A stretch of DNA of 64,000 bases. Source: Acutalibacteraceae bacterium. GTDB taxonomy: Bacteria > Bacillota > Clostridia > Oscillospirales > Acutalibacteraceae. Position 1 is the first letter of the stretch, and each line of letters starts with the position of its first letter. Below, piece after piece: positions 2,832-64,000 of this stretch. The notes below the pieces were generated by a model. That model saw only the letters and a list, made by a program, of their open reading frames with translations, did not search any database and had not been told where the DNA came from. Location of the stretch: contig JAZQJD010000026.1 of NCBI GenBank assembly GCA_045541435.1, positions 164,842 to 228,841 of the forward strand. The letters run 5' to 3'. The position numbers and the translations under genes are program-made.

Positions 2832-4238
2832 TTGACTGTGACTGACCTTAATAAAATTGCCGAGGATATTATAGACCAAGGGAAAAAAGCAGTCTGCCGT
2901 GAAATCCCACCTTTTATAAGAGCAATAAATGCTTTGACTTTTCAACCATCAGAAAACGAGTACAACTACACAAACGGTAATATTTTTTACTATTCTCCGG
3001 AAGATATATGCAACAAATATAAAGCTAATAAAAACAGTATTGCAAGACTGTTAATACATTCATTATTGCATTGTGCTTTGCTTCATATTTACAACATAGA
3101 TTTCAAAAACAAAAAGCTTTGGGATTTTGCTTGCGATATATGCGTTGAAAAAATTATTAATGATGCAAAACTCACCTGCTCTGAAACAGAAAAATCTGCA
3201 ACTCAGAACAACATAATAAAAAAACTTTCAGACAAAATAAAGAATTTCACCGCTGAAAATATATACTACTATCTTATAACGGAATTCAAGTCAACCAATG
3301 ATTCGGAGCTATACACAGACCTGTTTTATGCCGACAATCACAACAGCTGGTATAAAAATTCACTTTTCGGTATATATGATGACAATGAAACCATTGAAGT
3401 GGAAGCTCGTTCAATTTACCAAAAAGAAGATGACAGAAGCGGTGAATCCCAAAGCAACGGAAAAACCTTAAGTAAGTTTTCAGACTCCAAGACAGAAAAC
3501 GCTGAGGATGCTTGGCGGGAAATCACAAAGCAAATACTCCGTGATGCAGATATTTTTCCATCTCAAATGGGAACAAATGCAGGCAACATTCTTCAAAATC
3601 TTGAAGCTGTAACCCGAGAAGAATATGATTATTCCGAATTATTGAAAAATTTCATTAAGGCTGATGAAGCTCTTGAAATTAATGACGATGAATTCGACTA
3701 TATTTATTACACATACGGACTTAAGCTTTACGAAAACATACCTTTAATCGAACCGCTTGAATATTCGGAAAGCGGAAAAATCAAGAAGCTTGTTATCGCA
3801 ATCGACACCTCAGGCTCTGTAATGGGTGAAATTGTTGAGGGATTTATAAGAAAAACATATTCAATACTCAACACCACTGATTTTTTCAGAAGCAATTTTG
3901 AAATACATATTATTCAGTGCGATTCCGTTATACAAAATATAGCCGTTATGAAATCCACGGCAGAACTTGAAGATTATATGAAAAACCTTATTTTGCAGGG
4001 CTTTGGCGGTACGGACTTCACGCCGGTTTTCCAATATGTTGATGAGCTTTATGAAAGCTCATCTGAAAAAGAATTAAACGGACTCATCTACTTTACCGAT
4101 GGTGACGGTATTTACCCCGAAAAAACACCACAATACAAAAATGTTTTTGTAATTCACGATAACGGCTTCGACAAAAGTCAGATACCTGTATGGGCAACAC
4201 CTTTATATATTGATAAAAACAAATTAATAGCTTTATAA
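2832..4238 (+). CDS. DUF2201-type protein: N-terminal putative metallopeptidase-like domain plus C-terminal VWA-like domain
   Basis: HSLLHCALLH motif in the N-terminal part. MIDAS-like DTSGS (LVIAIDTSGSVMG) in the C-terminal part. TTG start with GGGGG RBS. Confidence 0.65.
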   Translation: MTVTDLNKIAEDIIDQGKKAVCREIPPFIRAINALTFQPSENEYNYTNGNIFYYSPEDICNKYKANKNSIARLLIHSLLHCALLHIYNIDFKNKKLWDFACDICVEKIINDAKLTCSETEKSATQNNIIKKLSDKIKNFTAENIYYYLITEFKSTNDSELYTDLFYADNHNSWYKNSLFGIYDDNETIEVEARSIYQKEDDRSGESQSNGKTLSKFSDSKTENAEDAWREITKQILRDADIFPSQMGTNAGNILQNLEAVTREEYDYSELLKNFIKADEALEINDDEFDYIYYTYGLKLYENIPLIEPLEYSESGKIKKLVIAIDTSGSVMGEIVEGFIRKTYSILNTTDFFRSNFEIHIIQCDSVIQNIAVMKSTAELEDYMKNLILQGFGGTDFTPVFQYVDELYESSSEKELNGLIYFTDGDGIYPEKTPQYKNVFVIHDNGFDKSQIPVWATPLYIDKNKLIAL

Positions 4239-4256: not shown

Positions 4257-5507
4257 TTGCAATCCGCAGATAAAACATTAAGAATCTTTTTACCTGTAAT
4301 AAAAACAGATAAATATGCCTTCAATTCACAAATTGAAGACGTAGAGATGCTTCATACCGTAAAAGCAGTAAAAAGCTCTGCATTCTGCAACTGTTCCTCA
4401 TTAAAGAACATTAAATTTTCCGAAAAGCTTACAGAAATACAGAATTTCGCTTTTTTGAACTGCTCTTCATTGGAAAATGTTTTGCTCCCCTCTTCAGTAA
4501 AAAGCTTAGGTGAAGGAGTTTTCAAAAGCTGTACAAACCTAAAAAAAATCCAATTACCCAAAAATTTAAAAGAACTCCCCGCTAACTTTTTTGAAAACTG
4601 CAGAGGGCTTGAAACTATAATTTTACCCGAAGGTCTTGAAAGTATCGGGGAAGAATGCTTCAACGGATGCATTAATTTAAAAGAAATTGTTTTACCTAAA
4701 TCATTAAAATCAATAAAAAAGAAAGCATTTAAGCGTTGCAAACGCCTTGAATCCATTGTTTTTCCCAAAGGTCTGAAATATATCGGTGATATGGCTTTTG
4801 AGGGGTGTAACGCTCTTACAAACATAGTTTTCAAAGGGTCTCCGGAAAATATCGGAGCATCTGCATTTCCCGAAACTCCGTGCGTTTTGCCGAATGTAAC
4901 CGGAACGATGTATTCTTCCAGCTTTATGCAAAAAAGCGAATACGGATTATGCCCGACAGTTACTGTTCCAAAAGATATAAAGAACTTGTGCTTAGGTTTT
5001 GAAAATACACTTACCTACAAGCAAACCTGCGAAAACAAAACCTGCTACAACCACATTCTTTCTTTAGAAAAATATAACGGACGGCTTTTTATAAGTGAAA
5101 ATTTTTATTCATACAATGACAGAACTGATGCACTTATAAAAAACGGCGAGTTCGATTTTATTAAATATGATTCTCAATTTGATAAATCAGAAGAAAAGGA
5201 AAAGCCTATTATTGCTGCTTTCAGACTTTCCTACCCAATTAAACTTCAAGAAAAAACGAAAGCAATTTATCATAACCATTTATTACAAACAGCAGAATAC
5301 GCTGCAATTTTTGCAACAGAAAAAAACGAAGAAAAGGTCTTAAAATATCTGCTGGATAGCTTTGATTTAGAGTCAGAATTTTGTTCATTCTTATATGAAA
5401 AAGCCTCAAAAAACAGCTTTTTAAATTTACAACAGATTTTATCACAAAAGAAGAAAAAAACAGGCTTTGAAGAAATTGAATTTTTATATAATGAAATTTT
5501 AGGGTGA
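4257..5507 (+). CDS. Cytosolic leucine-rich-repeat (BspA-type LRR) protein
   Basis: Repeated ~23-aa LRR units (C.sL..I.lP..L..IG..AF..C..L). No signal peptide. TTG start. Overlaps the next gene by 4 nt. Confidence 0.55.
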   Translation: MQSADKTLRIFLPVIKTDKYAFNSQIEDVEMLHTVKAVKSSAFCNCSSLKNIKFSEKLTEIQNFAFLNCSSLENVLLPSSVKSLGEGVFKSCTNLKKIQLPKNLKELPANFFENCRGLETIILPEGLESIGEECFNGCINLKEIVLPKSLKSIKKKAFKRCKRLESIVFPKGLKYIGDMAFEGCNALTNIVFKGSPENIGASAFPETPCVLPNVTGTMYSSSFMQKSEYGLCPTVTVPKDIKNLCLGFENTLTYKQTCENKTCYNHILSLEKYNGRLFISENFYSYNDRTDALIKNGEFDFIKYDSQFDKSEEKEKPIIAAFRLSYPIKLQEKTKAIYHNHLLQTAEYAAIFATEKNEEKVLKYLLDSFDLESEFCSFLYEKASKNSFLNLQQILSQKKKKTGFEEIEFLYNEILG

Positions 5508-21578: not shown

Positions 21579-22346
21579 TTAAACGCTTGCTGCTTTAACA
21601 ATTACAGAGAAATCTGCTGCTTTAAGAGATGCACCGCCGATAAGACCGCCGTCAACATCAACCTGAGCTAAAAGCTCTGCTGCGTTACCTGCATTCATAG
21701 AACCGCCATACTGAATTGTTACGCGGCTTGCACATTTGGGGCAATAGATTTCACCAAGAACCTCACGGATTGCATGGTTAACTTCATTTGCCTGCTCTGC
21801 TGTTGCAGTTTCGCCTGTACCAATAGCCCAAACGGGTTCGTAAGCGATGATAATTCTGTCAAGCTCTTCAGCTAAAACGCCTTGAAGAGCGATTTTTGTC
21901 TGAGAACGAACAACTTCCATTGTAACGCCTTTTTTACGTTCATCGAGAAGCTCGCCAACGCAAAGGATTACTGTAAGACCGCTGTCAAGAGCTGCTCTTA
22001 CTCTCTTATTAACTGTTTCATCAGTTTCGCCGAAATACTGTCTTCTTTCGGAGTGACCGATAATAACATATTCAACACCGATAGCTTTAAGCATGGGAGC
22101 AGAAACTTCACCTGTGAAAGCACCGCTTTCTGCCCAGTGGCAATTTTCTGCACCAATTTTGATATTGGAGCCTGCAGCTGCTTCCTGTGCTGCAAAAATG
22201 TCGATATAAGGAACGCAGAGAACTACGTCGCAATCAGCATCTGCAACAAGGGGTTTCATTTCGTTGATGATAGCTTTTGCTTCATCGGGAGTTTTGTTCA
22301 TTTTCCAGTTACCTGCGATAACTGCTTTACGAAGTGATTTATCCAT
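21579..22346 (-). CDS. tpiA: Triosephosphate isomerase
   Basis: AGNWKMN motif. Start moved to MDKSLRK, where an AAAGG RBS sits 9 nt upstream. Confidence 0.95.
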   Translation of the reverse strand: MDKSLRKAVIAGNWKMNKTPDEAKAIINEMKPLVADADCDVVLCVPYIDIFAAQEAAAGSNIKIGAENCHWAESGAFTGEVSAPMLKAIGVEYVIIGHSERRQYFGETDETVNKRVRAALDSGLTVILCVGELLDERKKGVTMEVVRSQTKIALQGVLAEELDRIIIAYEPVWAIGTGETATAEQANEVNHAIREVLGEIYCPKCASRVTIQYGGSMNAGNAAELLAQVDVDGGLIGGASLKAADFSVIVKAASV

Positions 22347-22547
22347 ATCAATTAAACCTTTCACTAAAAATTCGAAATTCGGAATTCGAAATTCGGAATT
22401 ATGTGGCTAAGCCATAATTAAAAGTATTTATTAAACTAACTGAGCAGTGATAAATAATAGAGTGCGCATAATGTGCTTTTTAGGCACCCCGAAGCGTATA
22501 AAGATACGCGAGTTCGGGTGACTAAAATGCGCAGGATGTGTGCTATA

Positions 22548-23759
22548 TTATTTATCGTTAACTGCTTCGATACCGGGAAGTGCTTTACCCTCAAGGAATT
22601 CGAGAGATGCGCCGCCACCTGTTGAGATGTGAGTCATCTTAGCACCGAAGCCGAGAGTGTTAACTGCTGCTGCAGAGTCGCCACCACCGATAATTGTAAC
22701 TGCATCTGTTTCAGCAAGAGATTTAGCAACTGCAATAGTACCTTTTGCAAGAACGGGGTTTTCGAAAACGCCCATAGGTCCGTTCCAAACAACTGTTTTT
22801 GCAGCTTTAACTGCTTCTGCATAAAGCTCTGCTGTTTTTGTACCGATATCAAGACCCATCATATCAGCAGGAATCTTGTCAGCATCGCAAACAGAAACTT
22901 CAATTTCAGCATCGATAGGATTGGGGAAATCCTTTGCGATTGTAACATCAACAGGAAGAAGAATCTGAACGCCTTTTTCCTCTGCTTTAGCAAGCATATC
23001 TTTACAATAGTCAATCTTTGTTTCATCAAGGAGAGATGTACCTACGCCATAGCCTTTAGCTGCAAGGAATGTGTAAGCCATACCGCCACCGATAATAAGA
23101 GTATCTGCTTTGTTAAGAAGATTCTCGATAACATTGAGCTTATCAGCAACCTTTGCACCACCGAGAATTGTAACGAAAGGTCTCTGAGGATCTTCAACAG
23201 CATTGCCAAGGTATTTGAGCTCTTTACCCATAAGGTAACCAACTGCAGCTTCTTCAACGAAGGAAGCAACACCAACTGTTGAGCAGTGTGCTCTGTGAGC
23301 AGCACCGAAAGCATCGTTTACATAGATATCGCAAAGAGAAGCAAGTTCTTTTGAGAATGCTTCACCATTCTTTGTTTCTTCGGGACGGAAACGAGTGTTC
23401 TGAAGAAGAACAACATCGCCATCTTTCATTTCTGCTACTGCCTTTTTAGCATTTTCGCCAACAACAACATCGTCTGCTGCGAAAACAACGTCCTTACCGA
23501 GAAGCTCGGAAAGTCTTTTTGCTACCGGAGCAAGGCTTTCTTTTTCATTGGGGCCGTTTTTAACTTTGCCGAGGTGAGAGCAAAGGATAACTTGAGCACC
23601 ATCATCGAGAAGCTTTTTGATTGTGGGGAGAGCGGCTGTAATACGGTTTTCGTCTGTAATAACGCCATCTTTAAGCGGAACGTTAAAATCGCAACGAACA
23701 AGTACCTTTTTGCCTTTTGCGTTGATATCATCAACTGTTTTCTTGTTTAAAAGACCCAT
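22548..23759 (-). CDS. pgk: Phosphoglycerate kinase
   Basis: RCDFNVP motif and length (403 aa). Confidence 0.95.
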
Positions 23760-30397: not shown

Positions 30398-30496
30398 AAA
30401 ACACCTTACAAAATCATATATAGTCTATTATATTTTATTCTAATTATATCGGTTTGTCAAGGTAACACAATGTATTGAAAAAAAGAAAGCTGTATG

Positions 30497-30700
30497 ATAG
30501 AATAGCTTTGTTATCAGGGGAAACAGGTGAAAATCCTGTACGAGCCCGTCGCCGTGAGGTGCATTATTGTTTTTATTCTACCTGTTGCCGCAAAGCAGGG
30601 ACAAGCCATTGGATTTTTCCGAGAAGGCGAATTAAAACGCACTAAGTCGAAATACCCGTTAACGCTAACTCTTTTAAAGACATTGTCTTGACTGCGAGTG
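30497..30700 (+). ncRNA. Cobalamin (B12) riboswitch
   Basis: GGGAAACAGGTGAAAATCC...GCCCGTCGCCGTGA core, a downstream GCCATTGG...GAGAAGGC segment and an AGTCGAAATACC B12-box-like segment. Located in the 5' leader of a DUF4430/ECF-S operon. Confidence 0.7.
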
Positions 30701-35249: not shown

Positions 35250-36314
35250 TTAAACTGCCTCCATAATTTCTTTGATTTTTTCAATAAGAATTTGCATTTC
35301 CTCGAGAGTACCGATAGTTATGCGGTTAAAATCCTTAATTCTTTCTTTTGTGAAATGACGAACAAGAACGCCTTTGTCCTTAAGCTTTAAATAAAGCTCT
35401 TCACCATCAATTTTTTCTGACTTTGCAAAAACGAAGTTTGCTTTTGATGGTAACACCTCAAAACCAAGGGCTTCAAGCTCTTTCGTTGTGTAATCTCTTG
35501 TTTCAATAATCTTTTTGCAATTATCTGTATAATAACTCTGAGAATCTATTGCCGCCGCACCTAAAGAAAGAGTAAGGCGGTTTATGTTATAAGGGTTGGT
35601 TGAATAACGAAGCTTGTGCAAATCATTGATAATTTCTTTACTACCGATAGCAAAGCCTAAACGAGCACCCGCCATTGAGCGTGATTTTGAGAATGTTTGA
35701 ACAACTAAAAGGTTATCGTATTTCTTAATAAGATTTACTGCACTTTCTGCACCGAAATCCACATAAGCCTCATCAATTACAACAACATAATCGGGATTTG
35801 ATTTAATAACCTTTTCAATTTCTTCGAGGCTCAGTGCAAGTCCTGTTGGTGCATTGGGGTTTGCAATAAAAACGCCACCGACAACACCGCAGAAATTTTC
35901 GTAATCAATAGAGAAATCCTCTTCCAAGGGAATTTCTGTATAATCAGAGCCGTGAAGATTTGCAAAAACGCTGTAAAAGCCATAGGTTATATCTGCAAAA
36001 TACGACTTTCTGCCGTTGGCACAATATGCCATAAATGCAAAGTTCAGAATATCATCTGAGCCGTTTGCAAGGAAAACATTTTCTGTTTCCACGCCATAAA
36101 GGTCAGCAAGCTTTTTAGTAAGAATTTTACCGTCGGGGTCGGGGTAAAGTCTTAAAAGCTCTGCTTCGCCTTTATTTGCCTGCGCAAGTGTTTCGGGACT
36201 TGGCGGATATGGTGACTCATTAGTATTGAGTTTTATATATTTTTTATCCTGTGGCTGTTCACCGGGAACATAAGCCGCCAGGGAATTATATCTTTCGTCA
36301 AGGAATTTACTCAT
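35250..36314 (-). CDS. hisC: Histidinol-phosphate aminotransferase
   Basis: Start set at MSKFLDERY, where a GGGGGAAGAG RBS lies upstream. The longer ORF in the track runs through the structured intergenic insert. Confidence 0.85.
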   Translation of the reverse strand: MSKFLDERYNSLAAYVPGEQPQDKKYIKLNTNESPYPPSPETLAQANKGEAELLRLYPDPDGKILTKKLADLYGVETENVFLANGSDDILNFAFMAYCANGRKSYFADITYGFYSVFANLHGSDYTEIPLEEDFSIDYENFCGVVGGVFIANPNAPTGLALSLEEIEKVIKSNPDYVVVIDEAYVDFGAESAVNLIKKYDNLLVVQTFSKSRSMAGARLGFAIGSKEIINDLHKLRYSTNPYNINRLTLSLGAAAIDSQSYYTDNCKKIIETRDYTTKELEALGFEVLPSKANFVFAKSEKIDGEELYLKLKDKGVLVRHFTKERIKDFNRITIGTLEEMQILIEKIKEIMEAV

Positions 36315-36332
36315 TGGATTACTCTTCCCCCT

Positions 36333-36607
36333 GGGGTGAGTGAAACCGAACCAAATAAGCCTAAAATGTCCGATTTTACGCACCTTTGTAATTTTTTTGT
36401 CTCGTAATACGCCAGTATTACTTCGCCAAAGGAAATCCCAAATGCACGCAAACTCGGGCATTTTAGGTTCTGCGAAGTTTAATACTTGGCAATTTTTTCT
36501 GTAACAAGGCAAAACTCGCAGGAAGGCTTTCTCCTTTCAAGAGTTTTAACGATGTTACAGGGAAAAGTGACTGTATTAAACCTTGTTTGGTTCAGTTTCA
36601 CTCACCC
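36333..36607. repeat. Inverted-repeat-bounded structured element between hisD and hisC
   Basis: 19-20-bp terminal inverted repeats (GGGGTGAGTGAAACCGAACC at 36333-36352 and GGTTCAGTTTCACTCACCC at 36589-36607). Nested internal inverted repeats are also present. Confidence 0.6.
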
Positions 36608-37865
36608 TTATACTTACACTCTTTGCGTGAGCGTGAAGTCCTTCTTCAGTAGCAAAGCGAACCACTTTATCGCCCACCTCTTTAAGAGCTTCTCTGCTGA
36701 AATATGAAAACTGAGTTTTCTTAACAAAATCATCAACTGAAAGAGGGCTTGAAAATCTTGCAGTACCGCTTGTGGGTAATGTGTGGTTAGGACCTGCAAA
36801 ATAGTCACCGAGAGCCTCGGGACAGTTTTTTCCTAGAAACACAGAGCCTGCATTTTTAACATAACCCAAATATTCAAATGGATTATCAACACAGATTTCA
36901 AGGTGCTCCGGAGCTAAAATATTTGAGGTTTCCATAGCTTCAACAAGAGAATCTGTAATAATAATTTTGCCGTTTGTATCAATGGAGCAACGGGCAATTT
37001 CTGCTCTTGGGAGCAAAGGAATCTGAATTTCAAGCTGTTCGCTTACTTTATTTGCAAATTCTTCGCAATCTGTGATAAGAACTGCGGTTGCCATTTTATC
37101 GTGCTCTGCCTGTGAAAGTAAATCTGCCGCAATATGAGCAGGATTGTTTGTTCCGTCAGCAACAACAAGAATTTCACTTGGTCCTGCAATCATATCAATA
37201 TCAACTGTGCCGAAAACCTGCTTTTTAGCTTCTGCAACAAAAGCGTTACCGGGACCAACAATTTTATCAACCTTGGGCACACTTTCTGTTCCGTATGCAA
37301 GAGCAGCAACTGCCTGAGCACCACCGATTTTGAATATTCTGTCAACCCCTGCGATACTTGCAGCCGCAAGAATTACAGGCTTGATTTTACCTTCTTTTGC
37401 AGGTGTTACCATAACAATTTCAGAGCAACCTGCAATTTTAGCGGGAACGCAGTTCATAAGAACTGATGATGGGTAAGAAGCTGTACCACCGGGAACATAA
37501 AGACCAACCTTTTCAATGGGTAACACCTTCTGACCGATTATAACCCCAGCATTATCGTTTATAACAAAGGAGTTGCGAACCTGCCTTGAATGGAAAGCGG
37601 TAATATTCTCTTTAGCCTGCTTTAAGATTTCGATAAGTTCAGCATCGACTTGATTTAAAGCAGCTTCAATTTCTTCTTTGGTTACTTCAATAACATCATC
37701 AACCGCACCATCGAATTTCTTGCTGTATTCAACAAGAGCTTTATCGCCGTTTTCACGGACATTTTTTATTATATCAGCAACAATACCCTCAACATCAATG
37801 GTCTGCTCGCTTCTTTCAAGAATTTCTTCTGTTGAGATTTCGCTACGCTTGTATATTTTAATCAC
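36576..37865 (-). CDS. hisD: Histidinol dehydrogenase
   Basis: 429-aa ORF with full-length HisD similarity. Confidence 0.95.
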
Positions 37866-39454
37866 TGTTTTTCCCTCACAATTTCGTCTAATGAAGCTTT
37901 AAGTTTATCTATAATTTCAGATTTAAATTTATAGCTTGCTTTGTTTGAAATAAGCCTTGCGCTTATTGCCACAATAGTTTCTTTAGGCTCAAGACCGTTT
38001 TCAAGAAGAGTTGCACCTGTTTCAACAATATCGACAATAACATCGGAAAGGCCAAGAATGGGTGCAATTTCGATGGAGCCGTTAAGCTTTATAATATCAA
38101 TATCACGGCATTTATCTGCATAATAGCTTTTTGCAATATTGGTAAACTTTGTTGCAACTCTCAAGGTGCTTGTGCCGTTATCGGTAAACTCTTTTTTACC
38201 TGCAACACACATTCTGCATTTGCCCATATCCAAATCAAGAAGCTCATAAACATCGGGAGCATATTCAAGAAGAATATCCTTACCTGCAACGCCTATATCT
38301 GCCGCACCACGTTCAACATAAATTGCAACGTCAGAGGGCTTAACCCAGAAATAGCGAACCTTTTTCTCCGCATTTTCAAAGATAAGTCGGCGGTTTTTCT
38401 CGTGAATCTGAGGGCATTCAAACCCTGCACTTTCAAACATAGAATAAACCTTTTCACCCAGTCTTCCTTTAGGAAGAGCCACATTAAGCCAACCGTCGTC
38501 TGCAGTTTCTTCAACTTCTTCCTTATTTTCAAGAAGTCGGTCAACTTCATCAAGATAAACCGCAAAGCCGATTGCACCGGCTTTTTTATTAACTCGTTCC
38601 ATAAGCTTATCATATCTTCCGCCGGAAAGAACACTTGCGGGAACACCGTGAATAAAGCCTTTGAAAGCAATTCCGTTATAATAGTTCATATCATTAACCA
38701 ATGAACAATCAATATTGATATTATCTTCATAGCCTGCACCAATAAGCTTTTCACAAACCTTTGAAAGCTCGTTGAATGCATTCTGCATTTCGGAATTGAC
38801 AGCAACCGCACCGATTTTTTTGAGAACCTCAGAGGGCTTACCGCAGGCATTAACGATTTCGAGAAGCATATTAACAAGTGCTTCACCGATACCAAAGCTT
38901 TCGCAAAGTGTTTTTATAGCACCTGCATTTTTCTCTGCAATAGCAGAAAGTATCTCTGCTTTATTGCTCTCATTGAGCTCCATAGCATTAAAAATACCGC
39001 TTAAAAGACCTAAATGAGAAATATCAAGAACATAATTTTCGCTTATGGCATAAAGACTGCGGGCGGCAAGAATAATAACATCGCAAACATCGTTATCGGT
39101 AATGTCACCCATACATTCAATACCCGTTTGCATAATCTCACTGAAGCCACCTGCTTTTTTACTTTCACGGTAAACATTTTCATTGTAATAAACCTTTTGA
39201 ACTCCTTTAACGGAATCGTCAAGGTTTTTGATAATTGAAAAAGTTACGTCAGGCTTGAGAGCAAGGAGTCTGCCGTCTGTATCGGTAAAGGTAATACAAT
39301 TACCGCTTACAAGGAAGTCCTTGTTACTGCCATATAAATCATATTCCTCAAACTTGCTCATTTTGAAAGGCTTATAACCGAACTTTGTATAAAGAGAACG
39401 AAGCTCGAATATAATTCTTTCGGTGGGATTGAGAACAGAAGCATCAAAACTCAT
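37862..39454 (-). CDS. hisZG: Fused ATP phosphoribosyltransferase: HisZ regulatory subunit (N) plus HisG short form (C)
   Basis: The first ~315 aa are HisRS-paralog-like (HisZ). The last ~210 aa are HisG-short (LNVALPKGRL...). Read as a single uninterrupted ORF. Confidence 0.8.
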   Translation of the reverse strand: MSFDASVLNPTERIIFELRSLYTKFGYKPFKMSKFEEYDLYGSNKDFLVSGNCITFTDTDGRLLALKPDVTFSIIKNLDDSVKGVQKVYYNENVYRESKKAGGFSEIMQTGIECMGDITDNDVCDVIILAARSLYAISENYVLDISHLGLLSGIFNAMELNESNKAEILSAIAEKNAGAIKTLCESFGIGEALVNMLLEIVNACGKPSEVLKKIGAVAVNSEMQNAFNELSKVCEKLIGAGYEDNINIDCSLVNDMNYYNGIAFKGFIHGVPASVLSGGRYDKLMERVNKKAGAIGFAVYLDEVDRLLENKEEVEETADDGWLNVALPKGRLGEKVYSMFESAGFECPQIHEKNRRLIFENAEKKVRYFWVKPSDVAIYVERGAADIGVAGKDILLEYAPDVYELLDLDMGKCRMCVAGKKEFTDNGTSTLRVATKFTNIAKSYYADKCRDIDIIKLNGSIEIAPILGLSDVIVDIVETGATLLENGLEPKETIVAISARLISNKASYKFKSEIIDKLKASLDEIVREKQ

Positions 39455-39747
39455 TTTTCTTCTCCCCCTTTGAGCTTTTCGATTATCTTTTTATAACCAC
39501 CGTTACCATAGGAAAGGCAACGGTTAACCCTGCCGATTGTAGCAGAGCTTGCACCTGTTTCAGCAGTAATAGTTGAAAAGGTTTTACCCTCGTCAAGCTT
39601 CTTGGCAACACTAAGGCGTTGAGAAAGGGAAACAATTTCATTAATGGTGCATAAGTCCTCAAAAAACAAAGCACATTCCTCTTCATTTTCGAGGCTTAAT
39701 ATTGCTCTGTAAAGCTCGGTAACATCATTATTTTTTAAAGGTGTCAT
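39451..39747 (-). CDS. YerC/YecD-family TrpR-like DNA-binding protein (candidate his operon regulator)
   Basis: 98-aa TrpR-like HTH. Overlaps the hisZG start by 4 nt. First gene of the his transcription unit. Confidence 0.8.
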   Translation of the reverse strand: MTPLKNNDVTELYRAILSLENEEECALFFEDLCTINEIVSLSQRLSVAKKLDEGKTFSTITAETGASSATIGRVNRCLSYGNGGYKKIIEKLKGGEEK

Positions 39748-39962: not shown

Positions 39963-40038
39963 GCTGGAATAGCTCAGTTGGTAGAGCAGCTCATTCGTAA
40001 TGAGCAGGTCGCGTGTTCGAGTCACGTTTCCAGCTCCA
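39963..40038 (+). tRNA. tRNA-Thr (anticodon CGU)
   Basis: Cloverleaf folds by hand. 7-bp acceptor stem, D and T arms, anticodon loop TTCGTAA, and an encoded CCA. Confidence 0.9.
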
Positions 40039-63765: not shown

Positions 63766-64000
63766 CAAACGAAATGGTCAAGCCCTCGACCTATTAGTAC
63801 TGCTTAGCTGAACACGTCACCGTGCTTACACACGCAGCCTATCAACCTCATAGTCCATAAGGGGTCTTACTAACTTAAGTTATGGGAAATCTAATCTTGG
63901 AGATGGCTTCACGCTTAGATGCTTTCAGCGTTTATCCAATCCGCACATAGCTACTCGGCCGTGCCACTGGCGTGACAACCGATGCACCAGCGGTGCGTCC
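63766..64000 (-). rRNA. rrl: 23S rRNA, 3' end (partial, runs off the window)
   Basis: The reverse complement contains the conserved domain-VI sequence GGATAAACGCTGAAAGCATCTAAGCGTGAAGCC and the GTACTAATAGGTCGAGGGCTTGACC 3' terminus. Confidence 0.85.

Follow-up and report, generated by a model that had tools for sequence, protein, structure and literature searches.

Why a histidine operon that is otherwise tightly packed should contain a gap of about 260 nt between two adjacent genes is the question raised by a 64,000-nt stretch of DNA from an Acutalibacteraceae bacterium (GenBank assembly GCA_045541435.1, contig JAZQJD010000026.1, positions 164,842 to 228,841), which was analysed at its full length and is referred to here as the window. 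In the window, the stop codon of hisD (histidinol dehydrogenase; TAA at 36578-36576) is separated from the start of hisC (histidinol-phosphate aminotransferase) by 261 nt, which agrees with the spacing of about 260 nt given in an earlier note made from the letters of the window alone. [quoted passage not shown] The analysis reported here indicates that the gap is explained by a 274-nt palindromic element that is probably MITE-like, non-autonomous mobile DNA with no gene of its own.

Empty and filled hisD-hisC sites

All of the 120 best HisD relatives (88-97% identical) terminate in ...SVSIR followed by 2-5 residues (TEK, GEE, TENQN and others), and the VSETEPNKV tail of the window HisD is present in 0 of the 120. 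Loci that carry the element (the window, L009, L066 and L072 complete; L073 and L074 partial) were compared with loci that lack it (L010-L015, L065 and L067). L009 comes from a GTDB metagenome-assembled genome (MAG) of the Acutalibacteraceae, L066 from an NCBI MAG, and L072-L076 from ENA metagenomes. In the empty loci, which include the closest relatives (HisD 97% identical), hisD and hisC are 1-4 nt apart. The empty site L014 reads ...ATA AGA GGG GAA GAA TAA TCTT ATG, and the window retains, downstream of the insert, the old GEE* codons together with an intact, native purine-rich ribosome-binding site for hisC. Judged from the alignment of filled and empty loci, the gap in the window is an insertion that is polymorphic at orthologous sites. 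Conservation of the spacer across the genus, which the earlier note had named as an argument for a structured RNA rather than a mobile element, is not what was found; most relatives are without the spacer.

The element and its flanks have different histories. The copies in the window, L072, L009 and L066 are separated from one another by 0-6 differences over 274 positions, whereas four-fold degenerate sites of hisD have diverged by 20-32%. Over the 400 nt on either side of the element, divergence is 8.8-9.2% between filled loci and 9.3-10.0% between filled and empty loci. A map of mismatches places flank differences every ~10-12 nt, up to positions -8, -20 and -50 on one side and from +274 or +279 on the other, and the island of near-identity among filled loci stops at the tips of the repeats. 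Neutral vertical co-inheritance of the element with the his genes is ruled out on these comparisons because the element is near-identical while its flanks have diverged.

The left junction reads ...AGTGTAAGTATAAG|G in every filled locus. The coding remnant beyond the right junction is of the GEE* type in the window, L072 and L009 and of the ENQN* type in L066, where it is identical to the empty allele L067. These junctions bear on a history that is itself compatible with a MITE, namely a single old insertion between hisD and hisC whose copies were later homogenised by gene conversion from others in recent spread, or whose filled allele passed between lineages by homologous recombination, with no series of independent insertions at the site. 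The identity of all left junctions and the remnant GGGRGAAGAGTAAT common to the window, L072, L073 and L009 (GEE*-type tail) fit one event, the right flank of L066 could be a recombinant joined within the shared GGAGAA, and the mosaic, star-like relationships of the flanking genes suggest frequent recombination. However, the flanks reach the divergence of the remaining gene sequence within 10-50 nt of the element and the filled alleles do not cluster apart from the empty ones, so homologous recombination would have had to transfer the element in very short tracts on every occasion. In L066 the remnant also equals the coding sequence of the empty allele L067, which fits a separate recent insertion. 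A single old insertion is a real possibility that we regard as somewhat doubtful.

Architecture of the 274-nt element

The arms of the terminal inverted repeat are 26 nt each, complementary at 24 of the 26 positions (92%) and spaced by 222 nt. Complementarity rises to 25/26 in the L009 and L066 copies, and the hisD-proximal arm does not vary among the copies at the hisD site. The 19-bp repeat described in the earlier note is real, since its 19-mer occurs exactly twice in the window with up to 3 mismatches allowed (0.03 expected), but the arms extend beyond it. A third copy of the arm was not found in the 64-kb window, across which the repeat ranks as the third-longest inverted repeat within 600 nt. 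The arms enclose two imperfect hairpins of ~105 nt each, and the 274 nt are predicted to fold as a three-way junction. The nested inverted repeats noticed earlier form hairpin B; the equally long hairpin A (which includes the stretch CTCTTGAAAGGAGAAAGCCTTCCTGCGAGTTTTGCC) had been missed. Coordinates are collected in Table 1.

Table 1. Positions of the element, its parts and the adjoining his genes in the window. Element positions are numbered in the his mRNA orientation (- strand), position 1 being 36607.
Feature	Position	Strand	Description
Putative MITE-like non-coding palindromic insert	36334..36607	.	274 nt; bounded by a 26-bp inverted repeat
Terminal inverted repeat, hisD-proximal arm	36582..36607	-	Reads GGGTGAGTGAAACTGAACCAAACAAG on the - strand
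Hairpin A	36477..36581	-	Element positions 27-131; base holds the new hisD stop codon
Hairpin B	36360..36467	-	Element positions 141-248; apex GTAATAC-TGGC-GTATTAC
Terminal inverted repeat, hisC-proximal arm	36334..36359	-	Reads CTTATTTGGTTCGGTTTCACTCACCC on the - strand
Element-encoded HisD tail VSETEPNKV and new stop TAA (36578-36576)	36576..36605	-	From translation
Remnant of the pre-insertion hisD 3' end	36315..36333	-	CAG GGG GAA GAG TAA TCCA; compared with empty site L014
hisD (histidinol dehydrogenase)	36576..37865	-	429 codons including the element-derived tail; PF00815 in orthologues
hisC (histidinol-phosphate aminotransferase)	35250..36314	-	354 codons; ATG 36314-36312; 354-aa orthologues carry PF00155

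The predicted folding energy is -112.4 kcal/mol for the his-sense RNA of the element (z -8.7), -115.2 kcal/mol for the antisense RNA (z -11.3) and -68.5 kcal/mol for the element as single-stranded DNA (z -10.5). None of 200 shuffled sequences folded as well, and the folding support that the earlier note had asked for is therefore strong in the window copy, in which the two strands fold about equally well.

The element has no gene of its own. Its open reading frames (ORFs) are at most 54 aa long or are extensions that depend on the flank, and none is conserved. A six-frame translation had no match among 5.8 billion protein clusters, and blastn of the element against plasmids and phages was likewise negative. 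Promoter and terminator scans gave no signal above shuffle expectation, and no promoter towards hisC was predicted. A full-text literature search with the repeat sequence returned one irrelevant paper on a human SNP. Rfam gave no credible match, whether at the gathering score or at E<=10, and this holds for its T-box, riboswitch, intron and ribozyme models too; the best match had E=0.075 and 19.8 bits against a cut-off of 45.

The element has GT...AG ends, and its removal from the window as a self-splicing intron would join ...ATAAGG to GGGGAAGAGTAA and restore a short HisD tail, SIRGEE*, which is a coincidence only. The same boundaries fail to restore the frame in L066, copies of the element sit outside genes, and its three long helices include no catalytic core. 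With no group I, group II or ribozyme model matching at E<=10 and with exon junctions that are inconsistent, the intron explanation is effectively refuted, and we give it next to no credence.

MITEs are defined as elements of <500 bp with inverted repeats of 4-30 bp, transcripts that form stable stem-loops, and direct repeats that may fade with time (PMC10969869). The element shares their size below 500 bp, has no conserved coding capacity, is bounded by 26-bp inverted repeats and shows insertion polymorphism.

Related copies at other loci

A complete 275-nt copy with 91% identity to that of the window lies at 3490-3766 of an ENA contig (L085; ERZ13616637 NODE_17367). It is located 36 nt downstream of a gene for a 477-aa large serine recombinase (Resolvase, Recombinase and Zn_ribbon_recom domains) and adjoins a truncated Mn-catalase ORF, an arrangement that recurs on three further contigs. 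L085 was reached through P0155, a 115-aa protein found by a HMMER search with the 54-aa + strand ORF of the element. P0155 is a phantom protein that arises from spurious read-through of another copy of the element, and on the three further contigs its element part has 1 change in 85 residues compared with 6 in 30 for the flank part.

Two short contigs with identical HisD, L075 (1477-2204) and L076 (1477-1810), run through the element into unrelated DNA. L076 leaves the element at the tip ...CACTCACTC, which is followed by the AGGAGG-ATG of another gene. In L075 the right half of the element is ~85% identical and leads into a promoter-like region and a gene with 53% G+C; because the window has 37% G+C, this flank derives from another genome. 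The gene that lies downstream of the copy in L075 has homologues of 39-68% identity, found only on contigs of ~1-3 kb. Both contigs are best read as chimeric assemblies that cross over inside copies of the repeat. L074 (3546-3661) ends at about element position 63 and L073 (1-284) starts at about position 35, and such contig breaks inside the element are typical of assembly-graph branching at a repeat.

Empty sites in the closest relatives, an island of near-identity that ends at the repeat tips and related copies in unrelated flanks together argue for the first of the three options in the earlier note, a MITE-like insertion. The element represents a previously undescribed family in uncultured gut Acutalibacteraceae and Oscillospirales. 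We infer that each lineage carrying it either acquired it or had it homogenised recently, and that it has relatives at other loci and in other genomes.

The L085 locus raises the question of the vehicle. The recombinase-bearing mobile element there may be what spreads the repeat. A stronger version holds that the element itself is moved by a site-specific recombinase, of which the one in L085 would be an example, or by another homing mechanism. This would suit the reuse of the hisD site with an identical left junction, the lack of an unambiguous target duplication, and the short, similar motifs, AGTA(T)AA at one end and (T)TAGGRA at the other, that lie outside the ends at different loci. The link to the recombinase is, however, one adjacency at one locus, where the 3' end of the gene faces the element in a manner unusual for an attachment-site arrangement. 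No recombinase was found near hisD in the window, and 26-bp terminal inverted repeats with TA ends are more typical of DDE transposons. Movement by a recombinase is accordingly very improbable.

Conservation, covariation and strand signals

The window and L085 copies differ unevenly along their length. Hairpin A is 97% identical and is the most conserved part of the family, hairpin B is 90% identical, and the two terminal arms are 65% and 77% identical. Over six sequences, 98% of the cells in the predicted structure are paired, and eight pairs are changed on both sides, five of them in the terminal helix. The observed level was reached by 0 of 500 shuffles, and pairing dropped to 30-48% in slid controls. 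In the L085 copy the arms co-vary, with five pairs altered on both sides, and hairpin B carries compensatory changes in the diverged copies L075 and L085. Covariation of the arms does not discriminate between explanations because one transposase that binds at two sites would lead to it just as an RNA helix would.

G.U pairs, which form on the his-sense strand only, number 7-11 in every copy compared with 0-2 A.C oppositions, and the sense strand of L009, L066 and L085 folds 11-13 kcal/mol better than the antisense strand, the window copy being the exception. These counts are to be read with the structure having been derived from the sense strand and with copies that are few and related. At both fully resolved loci the element is co-oriented with, and directly 3' of, a gene (hisD in one case and the recombinase gene in the other), and in L075 and L076 its orientation matches that of the gene downstream. 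The excess of G.U pairs, the sense-strand folding and the orientation are a hint of selection at the RNA level and nothing stronger.

The same observations are the basis for an explanation in which the element serves first of all as a structured RNA module with a function of its own, for example as an mRNA stabiliser, as a small RNA or as a site of processing. Selection would then maintain it, mobility would be secondary, and the terminal stem would act as an RNA helix and not as the place where a transposase binds. Hairpins that are better conserved than arms, arms that change by compensatory pairs, and a divergence of 0-2% in the element against 20-32% at neutral sites are what such a module would show. 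Most close relatives nevertheless lack the element and have an intact, tightly packed his operon, which means that the element is not needed for his regulation, and the copies found elsewhere stand beside functionally unrelated genes. Rfam offers no match even at E<=10, both strands of the window copy fold equally well, and long hairpins with near-perfect pairing are characteristic of mobile palindromes rather than of folded non-coding RNAs. The G.U count, in addition, favours the strand from which the structure was derived. We consider a primary RNA function unlikely, and the RNA processing, RNA stability and translational coupling options of the earlier note are compatible with the data as secondary effects of a mobile element.

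A cis-regulatory RNA specific to his genes (T-box, attenuator or riboswitch) was rejected as a candidate, being absent from the 120 best HisD relatives and from nine empty junctions and having no match in Rfam.

An intermediate proposal combines both aspects, such that the family would move a strand-specific structured RNA module about, with hairpins A and B constrained in sequence while the terminal helix could co-vary freely. Delivery would be preferentially to gene 3' ends or, by some targeted mechanism, repeatedly to the one site in hisD. This is speculative, and the chances are well against it. If it were true, the 0-2% divergence of the element amid 20-32% at neutral sites would reflect function or homing and not just recent spread.

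Evidence bearing on transposition

The assignment of the element to mobile, MITE-like DNA has to be weighed against a group of observations that do not favour it. The first is the distribution of conservation described above, since an interior better conserved than the arms is atypical for a MITE and is the reverse of the expectation if only the ends matter for transposition. The second concerns the junctions. Both resolved left ends have TAA directly next to them, and four of the five distinct right ends have TA at a distance of 0-1 nt (CCC|TAGGG, CTC|TTAGGG, CTC|TTAGGAGG and CCC|TAAAAAG); the window-type right end reads CAGGG. Duplication of TA is a property of IS630/Tc1-like elements and of Correia elements. 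The ends of the his element possibly carry a TA target-site duplication, but because TAAG and CTTA are complementary, the terminal TA could instead be an extension of the repeat. Removal of the element plus one TA yields a sequence that is 1-4 nt off every observed empty site.

The third group concerns copy number. The search for further copies by the repeat tip that the earlier note had proposed was unproductive: exact-pattern scans with GGGTGAGTGAAACNGAACC in 185,579 species genomes and with GGGTGAGTGAAACNGAAC in JGI metagenomes and IMG/VR recovered both arms only in L009, at the same his locus. The remaining exact-tip matches (57 stretches) were single chance matches with no partner arm and no further similarity, and four additional viral scans with a longer arm pattern and interior motifs gave only chance matches in phage coding sequence. 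The exact-tip scans missed the other copies because those copies have diverged tips (GAGTGAGTGGATTC...), the tips being the variable part of the family, and copies elsewhere surfaced only via the called ORF and the chimeric contigs. One copy is present in the 64-kb window and one with an exact tip in the L009 MAG, and among the genomes covered none was shown to have more than one. No transposase with matching ends turned up; insertion-sequence databases were not searched.

Lastly, an added assumption is required to explain why the same site is occupied by nearly identical elements in lineages with ~25% neutral divergence. It could be a strong target preference, spread by recombination, or gene conversion from other copies. 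Three histories are left: repeated insertion at a preferred site, an old insertion refreshed by gene conversion, and transfer in very short recombination tracts. The element is an ordinary kind of selfish DNA, yet its conservation is unusually high and several diverged lineages carry it at one and the same position. Reversed conservation, interior over ends, and reuse of the same site are the respects in which it goes slightly beyond a textbook MITE, and both leave a small probability that the element is targeted or has a function as RNA.

Consequences for hisD, hisC and their annotation

A transposase encoded elsewhere would presumably move the element in trans. The element entered the 3' end of hisD directly after ...AGT ATA AG, at a point only a few bases upstream of the stop codon then in use. 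HisD gains a 9-residue tail and a stop codon because the repeat arm happens to stay in frame. The hisD-proximal arm contributes the final two bases of the Arg codon and the larger part of the VSETEPNKV tail, as the earlier note had recognised in assigning the last HisD residues to an arm, and this tail stands in for the native tail of 3-5 residues (GEE, TENQN, TEK and others). The operon probably still works, with a highly structured 261-nt spacer transcribed inside the his mRNA.

The hisC-proximal arm stops 19 nt short of the hisC ATG. The earlier note placed the end of this arm 8 nt before the ribosome-binding site, which holds only approximately, as the purine-rich GGGGGAAGAG starts 2 nt beyond the arm. 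In a model of accessibility with the 5' arm blocked or free, the ribosome-binding site pairs with hisC coding sequence in both cases. By analogy with Correia and enterobacterial repetitive intergenic consensus (ERIC) elements, which act in such ways, plausible effects on hisC would be the loss of the 1-4 nt hisD-hisC coupling, RNase III-type cleavage of the 26-bp stem, and altered stability of the mRNA.

The insert leaves the hisC frame open upstream, for 66 codons through the element up to 36512, and for this reason public HisC gene calls are 369-404 aa long instead of 354 aa: 403 aa in P0147 (identical to the window), 404 aa in P0142 and 369 aa in P0135 (L066, whose frame differs). These extended calls are an annotation artefact with no conserved ORF behind them. 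Exact look-ups of the window HisD, HisC and a TrpR-like protein found them unrecorded or on short contigs only.

At the head of the operon (37862-39747, - strand), a 98-aa TrpR-like gene (PF01371) overlaps the gene for a 530-aa protein with HisZ-like (tRNA-synt_His) and HisG domains. This fused regulatory and catalytic ATP-phosphoribosyltransferase with its small repressor-like gene is kept at the operon head in all related loci.

The value of the element lies mainly in annotation and natural history. It accounts for a set of wrong public calls (HisC proteins of 369-404 aa, a foreign tail on HisD and a phantom protein of 115 aa), and it shows how repeats yield chimeric and broken metagenome contigs, which is a warning for the binning of MAGs. 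Filled and empty alleles of the operon coexist and also form a natural experiment in which two essential biosynthetic genes can be compared, for translational coupling and mRNA stability, with and without a structure of -112 kcal/mol between them.

Other features of the window

A second imperfect palindrome of 108 nt is located at 22449-22556, with 41-nt arms that are 78% complementary and a nested apex GCGTAT-AAAG-ATACGC. It starts at the stop of a - strand gene (22548..23759) and lies upstream of the gene at 21579..22364. It may be another intergenic palindromic element; as a relative of the his element it was rejected, its similarity being no better than that of shuffles. A further hairpin, at 5063-5165, has arms of 35 nt that are 74% complementary and a loop of 33 nt. 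At the Rfam gathering score, the window contains a cobalamin riboswitch (30480-30673, + strand), a tRNA gene just upstream of the his operon (39963-40035, + strand) and, at its edge, the 3' end of a 23S rRNA gene (63774-64000, - strand).

Comparison with known palindromic elements

Correia elements, the MITEs of Neisseria, have terminal repeats 26 bp long and generate a TA duplication. They resemble the his element in being small and non-coding with terminal inverted repeats of ~26 bp, and TA abuts most ends of the his element as it does in Correia. Correia elements are often co-transcribed with adjoining genes, as the his element probably is, the long hairpin closed by their repeats is cut by RNase III, and they can carry promoters or IHF sites (PMC10969869). 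They differ in their length of 100-200 nt and in exceeding 100 copies per genome, whereas the his element has 274 nt and two long internal hairpins and shares no sequence similarity with them.

ERIC elements (also called IRU) of enterobacteria and yersiniae are imperfect palindromes that lie in transcription units, often at gene 3' ends, and they affect mRNA levels in an orientation-dependent manner via RNase E (PMC10969869). The his element is likewise an imperfect palindrome and stands at a gene 3' end in both resolved loci. ERIC elements are, however, ~127 bp long, belong to Gammaproteobacteria and occur in tens to hundreds of copies, and no homology was found between the two.

Rickettsia palindromic elements land in frame in coding sequence and add a peptide to a housekeeping enzyme (PMC10969869), much as the repeat arm of the his element adds VSETEPNKV and a stop to HisD. 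The Rickettsia elements, at ~150 bp, are read through as an internal peptide, whereas the his element ends the protein and only its first 32 nt are translated.

The RUP, BOX and SPRITE elements of pneumococcus were compared alongside QMITE2 of Coxiella burnetii; all come from organisms unrelated to the bacterium of the window and show no sequence similarity to the his element. QMITE2 also differs in having clear direct repeats of 7-9 bp, none of which is seen at the his element. Its repeats measure 23-29 bp, its transcript has a predicted energy of ~-113 kcal/mol and its preferred location is in 3' untranslated regions (PMC10969869), and in repeat length, transcript energy and location it closely parallels the his element.

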